Positions 27,838-36,179 of a stretch of 59,537 nt of DNA are shown here, one piece after another; position 1 is the first letter of the stretch; every line of letters begins with the position of its first letter. The translations under genes were made by a program, and so were the position numbers. The DNA lies in the IMG/VR virus record IMGVR_UViG_3300043640_000359, positions 1-59,537 of that record, one strand, 5' to 3'. This stretch comes from a virus (taxonomy: Duplodnaviria > Caudoviricetes). The notes beneath the pieces were generated by a model, which worked only from the letters and a program-made list of their open reading frames with translations, had not been told where the DNA came from and did not search any database.

Positions 27838-30048
27838 GTGGATTGGACCGACTCACCCAAACTCCGACCCTACGAGAACCACGGGGTGCTGTTCGCGAGC
27901 AGCCGTGGAAAGGAAGCGATCGGCTTGTGCCCCTTCACCGGGAAGCGAGACAAGTTCTACGTCAACATCGACAACGGTCTCTGGGACTCCAAGACCGCGG
28001 GCATGGGCGGCAACGTCCATCAGTTCCTGGAACAGATCCAGAAGATCTACCAGGAGGCGATGACCCCCGAGCGGTTGAAGGCGTTGGCCGATCACCGCAA
28101 GCTCCCCATGCGCGCGTTCGAGGACTGGGACCTTGGGTGGGACGGCGACTACGAGCGGAAGATCGACGGGGTCACGGTGCGTGGTGCGTACACACTCCCC
28201 GTGTACGATACGTCGGGCACGATGATCGATATCCGCCGCTACAACCTCTCCGCCAAGAGCATGATGTCCACGGCCGGGATGAAGGTGGGCCTGATGGGTG
28301 CGCACAAGCTCACCGCCAAGCCCAGCGCTCCCGTGTACATCTGCGAAGGCGAGTGGGACTGCATCGCGCTCACGTGGCTGCTGGAGCGTCTCGAGATCGA
28401 CGCCGTGGTGCTGGGACTCCCAGGTGCCGGCGTGATGAAGAGCGAGTGGTCGGGATGGCTGACCGGTCGCATCATCCACTTGCTCTACGACAACGACCGC
28501 GCCGGTCGCGTAGGCGAACTGAGCGCGTGGGAGAAGCTGAAGACCGTTTCTCGTCACATCACTTTCACGCATTGGCCGGCGGACGACGTGCCCGACGGCT
28601 TCGACGTGCGTGACTGGGTAGTGTATGGTGCGGTGGAGAAGAAGACGCCGAAGATGTGCTGGGAGCGGCTCCAGGGATTGTTCCGGAAAGAGCCGCGCGA
28701 TCTCAACGCGACCCTCATCGATGAGAAGGTTACAAAGAAACTCCGACTGGTGAAGCGCAAGCCCACCGAAGCGGAGACGAAGAAGGCCGGATGGAAGCCT
28801 ACGCTCGAGGAGGTGCACGCCACCTTCTCGAAATGGCTGCATCTCCGCAACACCGACGCCATCGACGTCATGCTCGCCACGGTGCTGTCGCAGCGTATTG
28901 GCGGCAACGATCCCTGCTGGGTATTCCTGGTGGGTCCGCCGGGGAGCGCCAAGACGGCCATCCTGAATTCCATCTCCGACTACGAGATGGTCTACGCCAC
29001 CAGCTCCCTCACGCCCCACTCACTGATCTCTGGTGCGAAAGTGGACGGCGTGGATCCGTCGTTGATTCCGCGGTTGAACGGCCGCGTGTTGATGGTCAAA
29101 GACTTCACCTCCATCCTGTGCATGCGCGAGATGGACAAGGAGGAAATCTTCGGCTACCTGCGCGACGCCTACGACGGCCGTTGCGGTAAGGTGTTCGGCA
29201 ACGGCGTGGAACGAAGCTATGTGTCGCGCTTCACAATCGTCGCGGCCGTCACCCCGCGCATCTACGACCTGGGCGAGAACCACCAGGCACTCGGCGAACG
29301 GTTCCTGAAGTTCACGGTGGGCGACAACCTCAATCACGACCAGGAGAACGACATCATCGATCGCGCCATTGCGAACATCGGCACCAGCGATGCCATGAAC
29401 GTGGAGTTGCGCGCGGTGGTCGAAGCGTTCCTCACCAACACCATCGCGCAAGAGGTGACGGTGATCCCGCACATCGAGCACGAGATGGCGGTTCGCATTC
29501 GCGAGCTTGGCAAGTTCGGCGCGAAGATGCGCGGCACGGTCTCACGGCATCACTATCACAACGATGTGATGACGGCACGTCCCTCCGCAGAGATCGGGAG
29601 TCGTCTCGGGATCCAGCTGGCGAAGCTCGCGCAGTCGGTCGCGCTGCTGCATCAACGCGCCACCGTCAGCGACGACGACTATCGTATCATCAAGAAGGTG
29701 GCACTGGATACCATCTCGCAGCGTATCGAGGATGTGGTGCGCTATATGTTGAAGGCGTGCCCCAACCCGGACCACTTCATCTCGACGAAGGAAGTGGCCA
29801 ACATTACCAACTACCCGCTGGCCACCTGCACACGAATCCTGGACGACCTACTGGCGTTGAAGGTGGTGGCGCGCAAGGGCAGTGGCTACCGCTATGCGTG
29901 GAGTGTGACGCCCTACATTCGGAACGCCGTGCGCATCAGCGGCATCTACGACGCGGCCGAGCAGCGCAACCGAGAGGTGGGCACGTGGTTCACGCTGCGC
30001 CGCAAGCGGAAGCCGCGCCGGCAGACGGCGGAGCCGGTTACGCCCTAG
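27838..30048 (+). CDS. Primase-helicase fusion (Toprim plus MCM-like AAA+)
   Basis: CPF, CEGEWD, YDNDRAG, GPPGSAKT, KDFTS and ERFL. Confidence 0.85.
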   Translation: MDWTDSPKLRPYENHGVLFASSRGKEAIGLCPFTGKRDKFYVNIDNGLWDSKTAGMGGNVHQFLEQIQKIYQEAMTPERLKALADHRKLPMRAFEDWDLGWDGDYERKIDGVTVRGAYTLPVYDTSGTMIDIRRYNLSAKSMMSTAGMKVGLMGAHKLTAKPSAPVYICEGEWDCIALTWLLERLEIDAVVLGLPGAGVMKSEWSGWLTGRIIHLLYDNDRAGRVGELSAWEKLKTVSRHITFTHWPADDVPDGFDVRDWVVYGAVEKKTPKMCWERLQGLFRKEPRDLNATLIDEKVTKKLRLVKRKPTEAETKKAGWKPTLEEVHATFSKWLHLRNTDAIDVMLATVLSQRIGGNDPCWVFLVGPPGSAKTAILNSISDYEMVYATSSLTPHSLISGAKVDGVDPSLIPRLNGRVLMVKDFTSILCMREMDKEEIFGYLRDAYDGRCGKVFGNGVERSYVSRFTIVAAVTPRIYDLGENHQALGERFLKFTVGDNLNHDQENDIIDRAIANIGTSDAMNVELRAVVEAFLTNTIAQEVTVIPHIEHEMAVRIRELGKFGAKMRGTVSRHHYHNDVMTARPSAEIGSRLGIQLAKLAQSVALLHQRATVSDDDYRIIKKVALDTISQRIEDVVRYMLKACPNPDHFISTKEVANITNYPLATCTRILDDLLALKVVARKGSGYRYAWSVTPYIRNAVRISGIYDAAEQRNREVGTWFTLRRKRKPRRQTAEPVTP

Positions 30049-30206
30049 GGTTCGCCGGCCGGCCAAACCGCCTGGATTGGCTGGCCCGGCGCTCCGCCTT
30101 GCCGCAAACGGGGGTCCGCCCCTAGCCTTGGGAGGGTCGCCGCGGCGATCGTTCCTAAGGCCTTCTAAGGGTTTTCGTTCTTAACCCGATCAATCTAAGG
30201 GAGTTA

Positions 30207-30235
30207 ACCCCGGCCCACACAAGGTAGGCCGGGGT
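30207..30235. terminator. Stem-loop between the convergent arms
   Basis: ACCCCGGCC/GGCCGGGGT. Confidence 0.55.
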
Positions 30236-30245
30236 CCGAGGGAGG

Positions 30246-30488
30246 CTAGGCGTGCGGATCGGTCTCGCCGGCCGTCTGCGCGGCCACACGACGGGCGATC
30301 TCGTCGTCTACGCGCGCCAATTCCGCCGCATAGCGGACGCCCGTGTCCACAAGGGACTTGCGCTGGGCGTCGGTGTAGTCGGTGCCGAACTGATCGAAGA
30401 CCCAGTTGAGGCCTTTGCCGATCTGCTCGAGAGTCAACCCGGCACCGCGGAACGCGGCGACAAGCTGGAGAACGCCTGACAGGTCCAT
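30246..30488 (-). CDS. Small hypothetical protein at the end of the lysis cassette
   Basis: 80 aa, amphipathic N-terminus. Confidence 0.65.
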   Translation of the reverse strand: MDLSGVLQLVAAFRGAGLTLEQIGKGLNWVFDQFGTDYTDAQRKSLVDTGVRYAAELARVDDEIARRVAAQTAGETDPHA

Positions 30489-30491
30489 GGG

Positions 30492-31229
30492 CTACTTCGC
30501 TTTCTCGTAGGCGACTGCCAGCGCGCGACCCAGCGTGGCGGTCAGTTGTGCTTCCTGTGCGCCGTCGAACGTGTCCACCACAGCGGTCTGTAGCTTCGCG
30601 ATCTGCGCCACGAGTGGGCCGAGCTTATCGAACTGACGGGCCTGTGCCGCGGTATTGAACTCGCGACCAGTCGCCAGCGCTTCACGAACGACGACCTGTA
30701 CGTTGAGGCACGGCTTCGCCAACGGCGACGTCGTGTTCTCGGGAGCCGGACAGAACTTCGATACCATCTGACTGGCTTCGATCAGATAGTCCGCGGTCTG
30801 TTTGTCGGCAGTAACGACAGCTTGGTTCTGGCGCGCACTGCAGGCCAGGCCCGACAGCATCGTGGCCGCAATGAAGAAGGCCACGTACTTCTTGCCGTTG
30901 CCCAGCAGCGTGTTCACGCCGTTGACGCTACTGTCGAGCGACTTGGTGATCGTCAGGGCCCACTCGCGGCCACCGCTCGCCACCATGGCCGTCATGACGC
31001 TCTGTGCCAGCAGCGCGCCGAGCTCGCCGTCGAGCGTGTGCAGCACGCTGTGGGCCAGCCATGTACCGAAGCCGGACAGCCCGACCGCGTACACCCAAAT
31101 GGGGACCTTCTTGAGCACGGGGATTTCAGTAGCGGTGCGCTTGAGCACTTCGATCACGGCCCACACCGCGAGGCCAATGCCTCCGACGGTGGTGAACCAT
31201 GTCATGGGATCGAACACTTGCGGGTCCAT
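30492..31229 (-). CDS. Holin-like domain followed by lipobox and helical domain
   Basis: Three hydrophobic helices, then KKYVAFFIAATMLSGLAC; AAGGAG RBS. Confidence 0.6.
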   Translation of the reverse strand: MDPQVFDPMTWFTTVGGIGLAVWAVIEVLKRTATEIPVLKKVPIWVYAVGLSGFGTWLAHSVLHTLDGELGALLAQSVMTAMVASGGREWALTITKSLDSSVNGVNTLLGNGKKYVAFFIAATMLSGLACSARQNQAVVTADKQTADYLIEASQMVSKFCPAPENTTSPLAKPCLNVQVVVREALATGREFNTAAQARQFDKLGPLVAQIAKLQTAVVDTFDGAQEAQLTATLGRALAVAYEKAK

Positions 31230-31263
31230 AGGGTCTCCTTGAAACGGGGGTTGAGTGGGTGCC

Positions 31264-33033
31264 CTATCGGGTCTGACCCACGAAGAGCCGGCCGACGTCG
31301 CCGAAGCTCACTGTGAACGATCCGCCGGCTGGCGCGCTCACATCCTGGCACGACTGCGCGGCCGTGTCGCAGAGCTTTCCGGCGAAGCCTTTGTCCACGT
31401 GCATGGTGTAGGTTCCAGGCCGTGGTCCATGAATGACGTAGTCGAAGCGACCGTCGCTATTGATCACGCCATCGATACGTACATCTCCTGACGACGGTGG
31501 CGCGAGTACACGGAAGGTACGCCAGCTGTCACCGCTATGGTGGATGGTGGTGAACGTCGCCACATCGCGATGCATCTGGCGAACGGTCCACGGGATCTGG
31601 TTGAACCCCACCACGTTCTCGAAGCTCTGGTAGCGCTGCACACAGTTGCCGCACATCTCCGATCCGATGCCGCGTACCGTCTGCATTGCCACGATGAGCG
31701 AGAGCGCCTCAGGCGAGTTCATCTCCTGCCCGTTGGATGTCGCACTCACACAGCGCAGCGAACCGCCGCACACCGGCGCACCAACGCCTTCACCATCTAC
31801 CCAGAAACGGTTCCACTTGCCAGGTGCCTCGTACAGCCACGTGAACCGCCGACGCACTTTGTCGTCCGCGTGGAGGTCGCGGTCGCCGTGGTAGTAGCCA
31901 AACGGTTGGTCGCTTGGGGTGAAGAGCTTCTGAGCGAAGCGGTCGCCGGGCGTATCCCATACGATGTTGCTGGCATGACCAAGATGCCACAGCATCCCCG
32001 TCCCGTCCACGACAACCCGGATCAGCGCACGGAGATGCGTGGGGTCCACGTCGCCGTTGTCGTCGGAGGTACCGTGCGTGCTGCTCGGTTCGTTGACCGG
32101 CGAGGCCCACGCAAACTTCCACGCACCGACACGATCCACTACGGCACGGAACTGCCGCATGACCGCGAACTCTTGGTCGCTGTTCAGGCCGTCAATGCCA
32201 CCGGTCTCGAGCGTGAGGCGCATGCCGCGCTCGACCACCGCATCGGCCAGCGAGGCTTCCCACTCCACGAAATGAGCGTGGCGCGCGTCCAGTCCGTCGT
32301 AGGCCGGCGAACCGCCGTGGGCCCAGACACTGCTCCCACCGCTTGGGCGGATGTGCGACCACGAGCGGAGGATGTGATACCCCTGCCGTGCCGCCGCGTC
32401 GAGATCACCGAGGATCTCACCCACGTACCGGTCACGCTCGCCGGCGTCGCTGATGGCTTGAGCCGCATGCCAGCGCAGCGGCAGGTCGCCCATGTGGAGA
32501 ATAACGAATGTCCGCGGCCCTGTGTCGTCGCCACACACCCCACTCTCGCACCAGATGCGGCCTTGCACCGGGTCCGCATTGACCCCAGGTGGAGGCTCAG
32601 GCAGTGCATCTCTGGCGAGGTGGACACGGTGTTCCGGTCCCGCGAGATTGCACGACGCACCGAGATCTCCGCAGTTGACGGTGTGCCATCCCTCGAGGAT
32701 AAACGCATAGTCAGCCGGTGCGCAGGCCCATCGATGCGAGAAGCCGTTACCGTCGCTGATACGGTCCGTATCCTGTGCGGTCGAAGCAATGCGGACATTC
32801 GGTAGCGGGTTGCTGGCGCCGTCCAGCGTATAGATGACCACATCGCGGCCGTCACACGACGATGGTGGCGTCCCAGGATCGGGCACGCAATTCTCGTCGA
32901 CCTGACCGTCGCCGTTGTTGTCCATGCCATCGCCGCAAATTTCGATGGGAGGTGTGATGATGGGTGGCCGGTTGCCTGCACAGGCAACGGCCGCGAAGAG
33001 CGCGACGATCCACAACCAACGTAGGGTACGCAT
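31264..33033 (-). CDS. Lipoprotein with MopE-like motif and glycoside-hydrolase-like domain
   Basis: Lipobox AVAC; EICGDGMDNNGDGQVDE; LDAAARQGYHILRSW, VNEP and WVDGE (clan GH-A-like). Confidence 0.6.
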   Translation of the reverse strand: MRTLRWLWIVALFAAVACAGNRPPIITPPIEICGDGMDNNGDGQVDENCVPDPGTPPSSCDGRDVVIYTLDGASNPLPNVRIASTAQDTDRISDGNGFSHRWACAPADYAFILEGWHTVNCGDLGASCNLAGPEHRVHLARDALPEPPPGVNADPVQGRIWCESGVCGDDTGPRTFVILHMGDLPLRWHAAQAISDAGERDRYVGEILGDLDAAARQGYHILRSWSHIRPSGGSSVWAHGGSPAYDGLDARHAHFVEWEASLADAVVERGMRLTLETGGIDGLNSDQEFAVMRQFRAVVDRVGAWKFAWASPVNEPSSTHGTSDDNGDVDPTHLRALIRVVVDGTGMLWHLGHASNIVWDTPGDRFAQKLFTPSDQPFGYYHGDRDLHADDKVRRRFTWLYEAPGKWNRFWVDGEGVGAPVCGGSLRCVSATSNGQEMNSPEALSLIVAMQTVRGIGSEMCGNCVQRYQSFENVVGFNQIPWTVRQMHRDVATFTTIHHSGDSWRTFRVLAPPSSGDVRIDGVINSDGRFDYVIHGPRPGTYTMHVDKGFAGKLCDTAAQSCQDVSAPAGGSFTVSFGDVGRLFVGQTR

Positions 33034-33044
33034 TGTGCCTTCTC

Positions 33045-33530
33045 CTAGAATGTGACTGAACCGTTCCGAACTTGCACCAACCATCGATGGACACCGTCCA
33101 CATACGCTTGGGTGCGCTTGGGAAACACGCCGGGTTTATTGTCGGCGGTCTTTCCGCCGTTGTACGCGGCCAACGCCGCCTCGACATCGCCCTTGGCCCA
33201 CATCATCCGTTCGTGCAGGATGGCACAGCCCCAGTTCAACCCGATGTCGGGGATGGTGAGCCACTCGGGCGGATCGGTCTTCGAGTAGCCCATCTCGCGC
33301 GCCGTGACGTACATCGCCTGCATCAAGCCATAGCTGGCGGCAATACGCTCGGGGATGCCGTCCCGATAAAGCGGATTATTCGCGCAGTAAGTCAACCAGA
33401 ACTTCGGCTCGTACCGATACGCGCCGGTACGCCCAGCGGACTCCTGCAGGCAGACCGCCACGACCAGGTCGACGTCGAGGTGATGCCGGAGCGCCGCATC
33501 TGACGCCTCTGCACGATACCAGAACTTCAT
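33045..33530 (-). CDS. Endolysin, SLT lytic transglycosylase
   Basis: QES, SYGLMQ and ALAAYNGG. Confidence 0.9.
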   Translation of the reverse strand: MKFWYRAEASDAALRHHLDVDLVVAVCLQESAGRTGAYRYEPKFWLTYCANNPLYRDGIPERIAASYGLMQAMYVTAREMGYSKTDPPEWLTIPDIGLNWGCAILHERMMWAKGDVEAALAAYNGGKTADNKPGVFPKRTQAYVDGVHRWLVQVRNGSVTF

Positions 33531-34174
33531 GCCATGCTCCCTGGTGTGGAGGTAGGGTTGTCGCGCACCGTGATGGTGCCGAACCACCCAATGGTTTCCT
33601 TCTCCACAATGTCGCGCATGGGTGTGGCTTCCATGTACACCTGCTTGGAGCTGGAGCCGGCTCCCGTCAGCAAGCGGAAATCTGCCCGGAACAGTCGCTG
33701 ATCCTTCACCGCGTGGGCCCACTCCGTGGCGATGTGGCGTCGGTCTTCGATGTACACGGCGCTGAACCAACCGTTGCCGAGGAGTTCGTCCAAGCTGAAG
33801 CCGGTGAGCTCCTCGTAGGCGTGGTTCACATGCACGTACAGACCCTTGGCGTTGGTCTCAAACAGCGGACGCGAGAACGCATGGCCGATGGCCGACTGTC
33901 GCGCCTCGGACCGCCGCACGGTATCCTCAATACGATCGATGGCATCGCGCAAACTCTTGCCGCCGTTCACGCCCATCTGATCTTTCATGGTTTTCTGTGA
34001 CACCTGCACTTCGGTGAGACCGGTCTGCAGGGTATCGATGCGCTGGAAGAAGCTCTTCCAGTTGTCGCGTCGGGTCTTCAACCACTTCCACACACCCCAC
34101 AGGACGCCCAGTGCGCCCGCGGCGTAGACGATGAATCGAGACCACTGCTCGAGATGCGAGAGGTCCAACCACAT
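33527..34174 (-). CDS. Single-TM coiled-coil protein with C-terminal PAS domain
   Basis: TM helix; NGGKSLRDAIDRIE; FETNAKG..VNHAYEELTGFS.DELLGNGW..DR PAS signature. Confidence 0.8.
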   Translation of the reverse strand: MWLDLSHLEQWSRFIVYAAGALGVLWGVWKWLKTRRDNWKSFFQRIDTLQTGLTEVQVSQKTMKDQMGVNGGKSLRDAIDRIEDTVRRSEARQSAIGHAFSRPLFETNAKGLYVHVNHAYEELTGFSLDELLGNGWFSAVYIEDRRHIATEWAHAVKDQRLFRADFRLLTGAGSSSKQVYMEATPMRDIVEKETIGWFGTITVRDNPTSTPGSMA

Positions 34175-34184
34175 AACTCACTCC

Positions 34185-34667
34185 CTACGCCGTAACATAC
34201 GGGAAGGAAAAGTACAGCCAAAAGTTGTTGGGCGAGATGGAGAAATTGACACCATCCGTCCGTGTGATGAGGAGCGTCGTGCCGCTGACCGGTTGAATAA
34301 TCGCTGAGGTCTCACCTCCGTTGTCAATGCAATAGCCGACCTGTCGTACGCATCCGCCCACCGCAATACTCCCGATGGGGATGGTGTACGTGATCGACGC
34401 GGTCGATGCGCTCAACGACGACTGGACAATCTGTGCCGTGACCCATACTTCGTTCATCACGACCATGTAGAAGTGCGAACCGAGGTCCACATTCTGTACG
34501 GTCCAGAGTCCGGTAGCTGCCGTGAAGAGTGCGGCGTTGTACGCGATGTTGACCTTCGCTGCGCCGCTCGGGAGCATGAACAACATCTCGTCGCGAATCG
34601 CCGCGTTCATCTTCGCGGCGTCGCCCATCTCGCCGCCGATCCACTGCCGTGGCGTATTCCAAGCCAT
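34185..34667 (-). CDS. Small tail fibre/adhesin paralog 3
   Basis: MAWNTPRQWIGGE..MNAAIRD; TAATG overlap. Confidence 0.7.
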   Translation of the reverse strand: MAWNTPRQWIGGEMGDAAKMNAAIRDEMLFMLPSGAAKVNIAYNAALFTAATGLWTVQNVDLGSHFYMVVMNEVWVTAQIVQSSLSASTASITYTIPIGSIAVGGCVRQVGYCIDNGGETSAIIQPVSGTTLLITRTDGVNFSISPNNFWLYFSFPYVTA

Positions 34668-35167
34668 TAGAGCCTCACCGCGAAGGAGACCGCCACGTAG
34701 ACGTAGAAGTTGGCTTCGGGTAGCGTAAAGTTCGCACCGTTCGTCAACGAGATGGTGATCGCGGTTGCACCGGCACCGGGGAGAATACTCCCGGCCGCGA
34801 CCACCCCACCGGCGAACATGAACCCCGATCGTTGGAATCCCGACTGCAGGATGGTCATACCGTCGGGGAGTCCAATCTGTATGGCCGGACTCGCCGACCC
34901 TCCGAACACGGACGTGGTGATCTGCGCCACATAGAAGATACGATTGCCGCACCGTGTGTAGTACTCTGCCGCGCGATCGCCGGCGTCAACGGTCCACGTC
35001 ATGGGTGCGACCCCCGTGAAGCGACCGGCGTCAAACGGAATGGGACTAGCCGAACGCGCGGGACTTCCGAACGGATTCAGGAAGAGGAAGTTATCCCGAA
35101 TCTGCGTGTTGAGGTAACTGGCCGGAACCAGCTCACCGTCGATCCACGTACGAGGTGCGGTCCACAT
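34667..35167 (-). CDS. Small tail fibre/adhesin paralog 2
   Basis: MWTAPRTWIDGE..LNTQIRDN. Confidence 0.7.
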   Translation of the reverse strand: MWTAPRTWIDGELVPASYLNTQIRDNFLFLNPFGSPARSASPIPFDAGRFTGVAPMTWTVDAGDRAAEYYTRCGNRIFYVAQITTSVFGGSASPAIQIGLPDGMTILQSGFQRSGFMFAGGVVAAGSILPGAGATAITISLTNGANFTLPEANFYVYVAVSFAVRL

Positions 35168-35169
35168 AA

Positions 35170-35700
35170 TTAAACCGGGGTGATGGCTAGCGGCATCGTC
35201 AGATACACAAATGTGGTGTTGGCCGTTACGATGAACGCGATCGTGATCGCCGCGATCTCAATTTTTCCACTACTGGCATTGGCCGTGGCCAGGCATCGAA
35301 TGGACGATGTTGCTTGCGCAAAGTACGTGACGCGGTCGAAGGTAGAATCTGAGAGCCGCGTATCCAATCCGTCTGGAAGCTTGATACTCAGCGTGCTGTT
35401 CGGTGTCCCGCCCACAGTGGTCGTGATGAGCTGGATTGTGTAGAGGCAGAATGGACCCGTGATCGAGTACCACTCAGCCGCGACATCGGCCACTTGTACG
35501 GTCCACGTCATCGCACCATTGCCGGTGAAGCGCGCCGCGTCGAACGTGTTCAGGTTGACAACCGTAATGTTGGTGCCGACGTTGTCGGTGGTGTTGGCGT
35601 GTGGGTTCAACACACGGAGGTTGTTCCGGATGTGGGTGTTGAACAACGACGCGTTCGTGTCTTCGCCGGCAATCCAGGTTCGTGGCGCGGTCCAGGCCAT
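35170..35700 (-). CDS. Small tail fibre/adhesin paralog 1
   Basis: MAWTAPRTWIAGE..FNTHIRNN. Confidence 0.7.
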   Translation of the reverse strand: MAWTAPRTWIAGEDTNASLFNTHIRNNLRVLNPHANTTDNVGTNITVVNLNTFDAARFTGNGAMTWTVQVADVAAEWYSITGPFCLYTIQLITTTVGGTPNSTLSIKLPDGLDTRLSDSTFDRVTYFAQATSSIRCLATANASSGKIEIAAITIAFIVTANTTFVYLTMPLAITPV

Positions 35701-35702
35701 GG

Positions 35703-36179
35703 TTACTTTCGCGGATAGGTCAACGTCTTCGTGACGCCGTGTACAACGTTCTCACCGTCGAGGCCAATCGGTTTCTCCCACGGTTGCCAGTTGCGCGTGT
35801 CGGGATCCGGCCGCTTGCTCAGGAGCGTTTCGATCTTGGCACGTGTCTCTGGATCCGGTTGCACGATGTCCGTGAAGAGTGCCCCACAAGTGAAGCACCA
35901 CGCACGGGCCCACCCCGGCACAACCGCCACACCACCCTTGCAGTGCGGGCAGTCGCCACACCAGCGGCCTTGGTTCACGTACACCGTCACCGGTGTGGGA
36001 GACGCCCACGAGGGACGACCATTCAGCTTCATCGCGGCGTGATGCTCTTGACAGGCGTCGTCTTCGCGCCGGATGTTCCGCTCACGGAACCATTCGATGT
36101 ACTGTCGGGCGTCACGCAGCGCATTGGGCTGAACGCCCATCTGTGCGAGTCGCTTCTGCATCTCTTCGATCAGGGACAT
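35703..36179 (-). CDS. Tail-region Zn-binding protein
   Basis: CPHC...CFTC and TRNWQPWE. Confidence 0.6.
   Translation of the reverse strand: MSLIEEMQKRLAQMGVQPNALRDARQYIEWFRERNIRREDDACQEHHAAMKLNGRPSWASPTPVTVYVNQGRWCGDCPHCKGGVAVVPGWARAWCFTCGALFTDIVQPDPETRAKIETLLSKRPDPDTRNWQPWEKPIGLDGENVVHGVTKTLTYPRK

Follow-up and report, generated by a model that had tools for sequence, protein, structure and literature searches.

The IMG/VR virus record IMGVR_UViG_3300043640_000359, which we analyzed over its whole stretch of 59,537 nucleotides (the window), encodes on its minus strand a 215-residue membrane protein, called the PAS protein here, in which a single N-terminal transmembrane helix runs into a helical hairpin with an NGG turn and a PAS domain forms the C-terminal part. 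The gene overlaps the start of an endolysin gene, the PAS domain is predicted to be cytoplasmic, and relatives of the protein, both short forms that lack the PAS domain and PAS-fused forms, are linked to genes of peptidoglycan hydrolases. We infer a role in lysis, a partner for the protein and sensing by its PAS domain. With about an even chance of being right, in our estimate, the PAS protein is a lysis-timing accessory, holin-like or holin-regulating, of the single-transmembrane-domain (single-TMD) kind having the N-terminus outside and the C-terminus inside (N-out/C-in), and the PAS domain serves as its cytoplasmic input. These findings suggest, but do not prove, that the timing of host lysis in this phage can be linked to an intracellular signal. 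The timing of phage lysis is well understood in few model systems, and T4 lysis inhibition, the known signal-responsive case, senses events outside the cytoplasm.

Architecture, predicted topology and endolysin coupling of the PAS protein

A preliminary description, made from the nucleotide sequence alone, had reported one transmembrane helix, a KWLKTRR segment, a NGGKSLRDAIDRIE turn and a full PAS domain free of a kinase or other output domain. All of these features were found in the 215-residue open reading frame (ORF), which lies on the minus strand, a point left unstated in that description. In Pfam searches the C-terminal part of the protein exceeded the gathering cut-offs of PAS_3 (PF08447; 2.3e-8, 34.6 bits versus a cut-off of 25.6, residues ~95-201), PAS (PF00989; 3.5e-8, 33.9 bits versus 22.6) and PAS_4 (PF08448; 1e-6, 29.4 bits versus 23.1). 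The Pfam scan detected no further domain and so none for output. A profile of 38 relatives matched solved PAS domains when searched against PDB sequences (3lyx_A, 6.6e-9).

The fold was also found by structure comparison. An AlphaFold2 (AF2) model built on the alignment of the 38 relatives, with a predicted local distance difference test (pLDDT) value of 88.7, consists of a continuous helix (residues 6-66), a loop (67-72), a return helix (73-99) and a five-stranded PAS core (104-203). Foldseek searches with this model gave 3lyx_A, the PAS-B domain of ARNT and others at target-normalized template-modeling scores of 0.76-0.83 and E ~1e-7. The PAS domain is joined directly to the return helix of the hairpin in the model, and the coiled coil of the preliminary description is putative, being judged from the predicted long helices. 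Effector-less PAS proteins gave the best matches in both sequence and structure, namely the short LOV proteins 5luv and 8q5e and CPS_1291 (3lyx), which share the fold but are soluble. LOV domains were among the PDB profile matches, and a reading of the protein as a LOV photoreceptor was set aside. A homodimer prediction with two copies of the PAS protein scored 0.02 versus a mark of 0.42 and gave the verdict "no answer". The matches of residues 1-100 in the ESM Atlas were generic long-helix look-alikes alone and were not used.

Only one lysine or arginine is present in the 15 residues before the transmembrane helix, versus five in those after it. By the positive-inside rule this excess predicts an N-out/C-in protein and hence a cytoplasmic PAS domain, the location put forward in the preliminary description. 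The same bias was found in 48 of 50 distinct PAS-form relatives (two tied, none reversed) and in 101 of 105 distinct short-form relatives (the rest tied, none reversed). The transmembrane helix of the window protein is unusually rich in glycine and alanine, a composition reminiscent of releasable anchors of the signal-arrest-release (SAR) type.

The PAS gene ends and the endolysin gene begins within one ATGA tetranucleotide, as the preliminary description had noted, and on the sequence we read this overlap as translational coupling of the two genes. The endolysin gene also has a ribosome-site-like GGGAG of its own at 33537-33541, 6 nt 5' of its ATG. The endolysin, an SLT-family lytic transglycosylase, also matched PHROG endolysin, transglycosylase and lytic-tail families and was the sole SLT match of the whole record. 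Because its N-terminus is charged and devoid of a hydrophobic or signal segment, and because the SLT domain begins at residue 12, the endolysin is considered to be soluble.

A phage protein family defined by the NGG turn and its hydrolase neighbors

A word-indexed protein search gave one relative of the PAS protein, and an identical protein is on record. An exhaustive HMMER search gave 17,824 PAS-containing matches, and 36 of the best 150 were proteins of 190-220 residues that matched over nearly their full length. The query, the earlier relative and these 36 sequences make up the 38-row alignment, in which N70, G72, S74, G111 and R160 are invariant, G71 and D77 are at least 90% conserved, and the consensus of the turn is PNGGxSLxDxxxRIE. 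The motif region alone (residues 64-91) matched phrog_9869, a PHROG family of unknown function, at 8.3e-4.

A scan of IMG/VR with the motif written in IUPAC code found at least 119 stretches, and in all 119 listed the motif lay in an open frame. Among these listed matches 109 were short proteins (47-161 residues), consisting of a transmembrane helix, the motif and a short helix, and 10 had a PAS-sized C-terminal extension. When the PAS-form family was compared with 35 short members by hhalign, the two aligned over 44 columns at 99% probability (E 4e-18), and by this profile comparison the N-terminal module of the PAS protein is homologous to the short "NGG" proteins. The module, a predicted transmembrane helix plus an invariant PNGGxSxxDxxxRIE turn, is by these scans widespread in phages and lies outside Pfam coverage; the short-form members matched no Pfam family. 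The short proteins (phrog_9869 and phrog_15431) share with the PAS protein the module and the predicted topology and likewise adjoin or overlap endolysin genes, but they end 20-60 residues after the motif and are without PAS. One of them, that of locus L002, matched phrog_15431, a family labeled holin, at 2.7e-7.

A stricter pattern that combined the motif with the PAS tryptophans found 51 IMG/VR stretches. Together with those of the earlier motif scan and the window, the PAS form totals 58 viral loci with 50 distinct sequences, which fall into 34 clusters at 60% identity and lie on contigs of 4 kb to 270 kb. As a DNA pattern, motif plus PAS matched once in the window and not at all in 100 shuffles of it. 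In three longer relatives (P0034, P0086 and P0088; 363-396 residues) the motif-helix-PAS unit is tandemly duplicated after a single transmembrane helix. In 185,579 species genomes the PAS-form pattern gave only four matches (L177-L180), all on contigs of metagenome-assembled genomes: two of Acidobacteriota, one of Pseudohongiellaceae and one of Bdellovibrionales. The contigs may be prophages or phage contigs that were binned, and they give a hint of diderm hosts. Searches of 50,697 deposited phage records by tblastn with the PAS protein and by blastn with positions 30000-36000 gave no match, and those records yielded no cultured phage carrying the PAS form.

Linkage to peptidoglycan hydrolases was assayed for short and PAS forms separately. 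For the short forms, blastp was used to group the neighboring ORFs that lie within 2.5 kb, and families were assigned from one annotated representative per large cluster. The representatives belonged to CHAP (also PHROG endolysin families), a PHROG transglycosylase family, Amidase_2, Peptidase_M23 and a LAS-like family. A CHAP, Amidase_2, M23 or LAS-like hydrolase was encoded on the same strand and no more than 300 nt away in 62 of the 109 short loci listed and in 16 of 39 clusters (60% identity), a lower bound because 28 loci have less than 1 kb of flank on one side. Neighbor cluster 27 (8 loci), to which no family was assigned, was left out of this count. The preliminary description had linked NGG.SL.D motifs with small membrane proteins of lysis cassettes, and that link proved right. 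Several short-form loci illustrate the arrangement. In Arthrobacter phage Sonali the stop of gp22 overlaps the start of lysin A, in Thermobifida phage P1312 the gene P1312_040 overlaps the start of the amidase gene, and in L002 a GH25 endolysin gene is followed directly by that of the motif protein. Arthrobacter phage LiSara gp70 is labeled holin in RefSeq and membrane protein in GenBank.

The LAS-like family, which has no Pfam model and corresponds to phrog_32486 (unknown function), was found at 25 short-form loci (for example, L083:2826-3314 and L053:5881-6888) and carries SDH...D.D...HxH motifs. The best match of its AF2 model (pLDDT 86.9) was the zinc LD-endopeptidase domain of VldE (E 3.7e-4, target-normalized template-modeling score 0.65). 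Searches by phmmer with two of the neighbor families gave no match among PDB sequences, and one of the two was later assigned by its fold. The LAS-like gene of L053 is fused to C-terminal transmembrane segments.

For the PAS forms, Pfam families were tallied over 145 neighboring ORFs of 30 representatives (top 25 of 68 families). As hydrolase families with a single member may lie outside the top 25, whole-record searches were added, in which eight Pfam hydrolase families and the LAS-like profile were run against 34 representative PAS-form records. Hydrolases were found at 11 places in nine of the 34 records, and eight of the 11 lay within ~1 kb of the PAS gene. Random placement would give ~0.8 near matches, and the probability of at least eight of nine records is 1.5e-8. 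Thus, the synteny of homologs with endolysins, which the preliminary description had named as a check, is far above chance. An SLT gene overlaps the PAS gene in G000, whereas gaps of 2 nt (LAS-like, G013), 16 nt (CHAP, G012) and 19 nt (VanY/M15_4, G023) separate the genes elsewhere. GH19 genes lie ~0.36 kb away in G026 and near the PAS gene after an ORF with two transmembrane segments (a 2-TM ORF) in G031, a CHAP gene lies ~0.7 kb away in G032, and one 96-residue ORF intervenes between the PAS gene and an Amidase_2 gene in G003. The three far matches were an SLT domain in a 1950-residue ORF (G013), a second amidase (G003) and an M15_4 gene 9.3 kb off (G010). Phage_lysozyme, Amidase_3 and Peptidase_M23 had no match in the 34 records. 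Local searches, which are biased to the neighborhood, added a lysozyme-like gene beside the PAS gene in G011 and a homolog in G015. Hence, a hydrolase-like gene lies beside the PAS gene (~1 kb) in 10 of the 34 clusters in all.

The classes encoded beside PAS genes, SLT, CHAP, Amidase_2, VanY/M15_4, GH19 and LAS-like, recall the pattern reported for DUF2730 proteins, whose family members are reported to occur with endolysins of various enzymatic types, some with a SAR domain and some lacking one (PMC9239132).

A proposed lysis accessory weighed against other roles

As a lysis-timing accessory, the PAS gene product would be made late, after the tail-fibre genes, and would sit in the inner membrane as a bitopic protein with a very short N-terminus outside and all else in the cytoplasm. 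It would be composed of two units: a lysis-cassette module, in which the transmembrane segment runs into a long helix, a sharp NGG turn and a return helix, and a C-terminal PAS domain fused to the return helix. The coupled SLT endolysin, as a soluble enzyme, could not cross the membrane unaided. The PAS protein would not act alone but alongside a distinct pore-former, in a manner comparable to that of LysF1b or the Mu gp25 releasin; the only partner candidate in the window is the 245-residue protein encoded at 30492-31229. The PAS domain would then be an added cytoplasmic input that changes the association or action of the hairpin and transmembrane module.

Two known proteins have this build. 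LysF1b (DUF2746, PF10874) of the F1 mycobacteriophages Girr and NormanBulbieJr carries one TMD at its N-terminus, with a predicted N-out/C-in topology, is required for efficient lysis that can be triggered by cyanide, an energy poison, and works with a partner having two TMDs (PMC13056207). The PAS protein shares with LysF1b, as described there, the single TMD with a predicted N-out/C-in topology, the predicted cytoplasmic location of the rest of the protein and a gene position beside an endolysin gene. LysF1b is also encoded next to a separate two-TMD holin-like protein, for which the multi-TM protein of the window (30492-31229) and those of four related cassettes would be candidate counterparts. 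The two differ in that LysF1b has a highly charged tail without a conserved motif and mycobacterial hosts, whereas the NGG family has its invariant PNGGxSxxDxxxRIE turn, here plus PAS. Mu gp25 (DUF2730, PF10805) is described as a membrane-tethered cytoplasmic N-out/C-in protein needed to release a SAR endolysin (PMC9239132). Likenesses to gp25 as so described are the N-terminal TMD, the topology, basic residues at the junction of transmembrane segment and cytoplasm, and a helical cytoplasmic part. The Mu releasin gene lies near the endolysin gene and just before the packaging genes. In that account gp25 has no PAS domain and acts on a SAR endolysin, whereas the window endolysin is considered soluble. 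Thus, the PAS protein, insofar as its sequence tells, resembles LysF1b and the Mu releasin in build and context, and homology to neither family is established.

A number of observations weigh against the accessory role. Profile searches gave no match to DUF2746 in the window at E <= 10 or in four short-form records at E <= 1, and none to DUF2730 in the window at E <= 10, and an hhalign comparison of the short family with five DUF2730 proteins reached only 35% probability. No experimental test of the NGG family, short or PAS-fused, was found in records or literature, and the "holin" labels are annotation only. The transmembrane helix of the window protein is weakly hydrophobic: its Kyte-Doolittle maximum over 17 residues is 1.45, versus a median of 1.83 in PAS-form relatives (family median 1.83-2.12). 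The residues conserved in the PAS part of the family (G111, N117, G125, G133, W136, W152, R160, G196 and G199) are typical of the PAS_3 fold and therefore say nothing on a ligand. In the duplicated relatives P0034, P0086 and P0088 the second motif copy is degenerate, and no informative output domain is added. Gene context also contributes. In 24 of the 34 PAS-form clusters no recognized hydrolase was found nearby with the families searched; many of these records are fragments of 7-30% estimated completeness, and five records of 81-100% completeness were likewise without a match to those families. The largest PAS subgroup (16 loci, 4 clusters) has the gene order PhoH, PAS gene, Zn-ribbon (~104 residues) and sigma-70-like (~226 residues). 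In six loci a portal gene lies just downstream of the PAS gene, and one PAS locus follows a DNA polymerase III alpha gene.

A more specific form of the accessory role would make the PAS protein a sensor and effector in one: the PAS domain would read a state of the host (a metabolite, redox or energy charge) and, through the rigid return helix and the invariant NGG turn, would switch the membrane module between inactive and active forms, the active form being either holin-activating or pore-forming. We regard this as possible but rather unlikely. The holin or antiholin gated by a host metabolite or redox state, which was proposed in the preliminary description, is likewise conjectural.

The context data raise a second possibility, a membrane PAS sensor unconnected with lysis and serving late transcription via sigma/anti-sigma factors or host takeover, whose adjacency to endolysin genes would reflect a shared position at the end of a late operon. 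The PhoH subgroup, with 16 of the 58 loci and 4 of the 34 clusters, fits this role, as do the loci beside portal/terminase or DNA polymerase genes, the 24 clusters in which no hydrolase was detected and the fact that PAS domains are generic signaling modules. The Zn-ribbon gene beside the sigma-like gene suggests, from sequence, a sigma/anti-sigma pair with an adjoining membrane PAS sensor. However, the conserved core of the family, the short form without PAS, has a hydrolase gene no more than 300 nt away in 62 of the 109 loci listed, eight of the 11 whole-record hydrolase matches are beside the PAS gene, and the stop/start overlaps involve endolysins of unrelated classes. Moreover, a portal/terminase neighbor is compatible with a lysis role, because in Mu, too, the packaging genes come just after that of the releasin. 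We consider the non-lysis role improbable, though deserving of attention. The PhoH-PAS-Zn-ribbon-sigma blocks are on fragments of large phages (L063, L133, L135, L141, L146, L155, L165, L166 and others), and the DNA polymerase III alpha gene directly 5' of a PAS-form gene (L054:4628-8503) contains an intein with a LAGLIDADG domain.

The PAS protein might also be the holin of the phage itself and form the pore with its single N-out/C-in TMD, as has been proposed for LysF1b, while its PAS domain would set the trigger point; this we think quite unlikely. A soluble endolysin needs a membrane lesion, and the PAS gene is directly coupled to the endolysin gene. According to the LysF1b report, phages having only LysF1b still lyse, and an energy poison triggers their lysis (PMC13056207). 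Some short members are labeled holin, and no canonical holin family was found in the window cassette with Pfam or PHROG. By its one transmembrane helix and its overlap with the endolysin gene the PAS protein agrees with the general description of holins as small membrane proteins of phages that have one or more TMDs and are encoded with the endolysin. Set against this are the separate holin-like genes of related cassettes. L150 has the order GTA_holin_3TM, VanY/M15_4, PAS gene, with junctions of 4 nt and 19 nt, and its holin-like gene matched with confidence both PF11351 GTA_holin_3TM (5.8e-28) and phrog_3427 "holin" (1.7e-39). In L022 CHAP and PAS genes are followed by a 117-residue 2-TM ORF with a weak Phage_holin_5_2 match below the cut-off, and in L014 and L172 a 2-TM ORF without a family match lies between PAS gene and hydrolase. 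A multi-TM candidate (30492-31229) is also present in the window itself, and the transmembrane helix of the PAS protein is weakly hydrophobic. Given the separate multi-TM genes in these four cassettes and the 245-residue ORF of the window, an accessory or partner role is favored over that of sole holin.

That the PAS protein is a strict releasin, freeing a membrane-tethered SAR endolysin as Mu gp25 does, is very improbable: the overall build is that reported for gp25 (N-terminal TMD, N-out/C-in, helical cytoplasmic part; PMC9239132), hhalign weakly aligned the short family with five DUF2730 proteins over 61 collinear columns at 35% probability and the Amidase_2 adjacent to the PAS gene in L163 has an N-terminal hydrophobic segment, but the window SLT endolysin has no such segment and DUF2730 was not matched at E <= 10.

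An i-spanin was also considered and rejected, since a transmembrane segment plus periplasmic helices would need an N-in/C-out topology, contrary to the charge bias. The T4 holin T, the type of class III holins, is a lysis protein that resembles the PAS protein in its single TMD and large folded domain; a signal acting through the folded domain of T delays lysis. T is described as N-in/C-out with a periplasmic folded domain (PMC13056207). For the PAS protein the charge count predicts the reverse topology, N-out/C-in, and thus not that of class III. The two proteins also differ in that the T4 signal arrives via a separate antiholin, RI, whereas the folded domain of the PAS protein is predicted to be cytoplasmic and has the PAS fold. 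The preliminary description called the T domain GAF-like, which was not confirmed; neither GAF nor PAS occurs in the text of the T4 paper searched.

Full-text literature searches found no paper that describes a holin or a phage lysis cassette with a PAS domain. Single-TMD N-out/C-in lysis proteins (the Mu releasin in 2022 and LysF1b in 2026) are a recently recognized class whose mechanism is unknown. To these the NGG proteins add a third and much larger, motif-defined family of that build without a Pfam model, and also a recurrent natural fusion to PAS (58 viral loci in 34 clusters) that offers a soluble, foldable cytoplasmic domain amenable to purification and ligand screening. If the PAS protein is a one-protein sensor and effector, dozens of uncultivated phage lineages, including jumbo phages, would time lysis from inside the cell, a topological mirror image of T4 lysis inhibition. 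If the PAS domain gates lysis, it would give a direct route to test the coupling of lysis timing to host physiology and, for synthetic biology, a small natural element with which lysis could be put under ligand control.

The window and its other genes

The window is a linear record of 59.5 kb with a CheckV completeness of 70%. Replication genes occupy the plus strand to ~30 kb, and the minus strand between 59 kb and 30 kb carries the structural genes. The closest relatives of the large terminase (50% identity) are those of Brevundimonas siphophages. The features of the PAS gene and its cassette are collected in the table.

Table. Positions in the window of the PAS gene, the parts of its product and the neighboring cassette features
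Feature	Position	Strand	Basis
PAS gene, 215 residues; bitopic membrane protein (predicted transmembrane helix, helical hairpin, PAS domain)	33527..34174	minus	ORF list, ATG start; AF2 model
Shine-Dalgarno-like AGGGAG, 6 nt 5' of the PAS-gene ATG	34181..34186	minus	sequence reading
Hydrophobic transmembrane helix, residues 14-32 (F14-L32)	34079..34135	minus	hydropathy; part of AF2 helix 6-66
KWLKTRR basic cluster, residues 30-36, at the C-terminal end of the transmembrane helix	34067..34087	minus	charge count
Family signature NGGKSLRDAIDRIE, residues 70-83, turn and start of second hairpin helix	33926..33967	minus	alignment, PHROG, AF2
PAS domain, residues ~95-203	33566..33892	minus	Pfam, PDB profile, Foldseek
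ATGA, overlap of PAS-gene stop (TGA) and endolysin start (ATG)	33527..33530	minus	sequence reading; plus strand reads tcat
SLT-family lytic transglycosylase, 161 residues	33045..33530	minus	PF01464 1.3e-13, from residue 12
Next cassette ORF, up to 606 residues, lipoprotein-like signal (hydrophobic 21-37, then Cys)	31264..33084	minus	ORF list, hydropathy
245-residue ORF, up to four hydrophobic segments (13-29, 42-58, 70-86, 116-132)	30492..31229	minus	hydropathy

By hydropathy, the 245-residue ORF alone in the window cassette qualifies as a multi-TM candidate for the role of separate holin. It matched no Pfam or PHROG family and had no homolog in the other PAS loci. Its fourth hydrophobic segment ends in a lipobox-like ...LSGLAC, which is followed by a soluble part of ~110 residues, and the ORF may combine a holin with a lipoprotein (perhaps spanin-like), either as a fusion or as an in-frame overlap. 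The ORF of up to 606 residues sits between the endolysin gene and this multi-TM ORF and, if counted from its earliest possible start, shares 40 nt with the end of the endolysin gene. It matched no PHROG family and contains a Cys-rich MopE-like metal-binding motif (PF11617, 0.014, below the cut-off). An 80-residue ORF also lies downstream, after the 606-residue and 245-residue ORFs. On the 5' side of the PAS gene, at 34185-35700 on the minus strand, three consecutive paralogous ORFs of ~160-176 residues have the N-terminal motif MxW(T/N)xPRxWxxGE in common and probably encode tail-fibre or receptor-binding variants.

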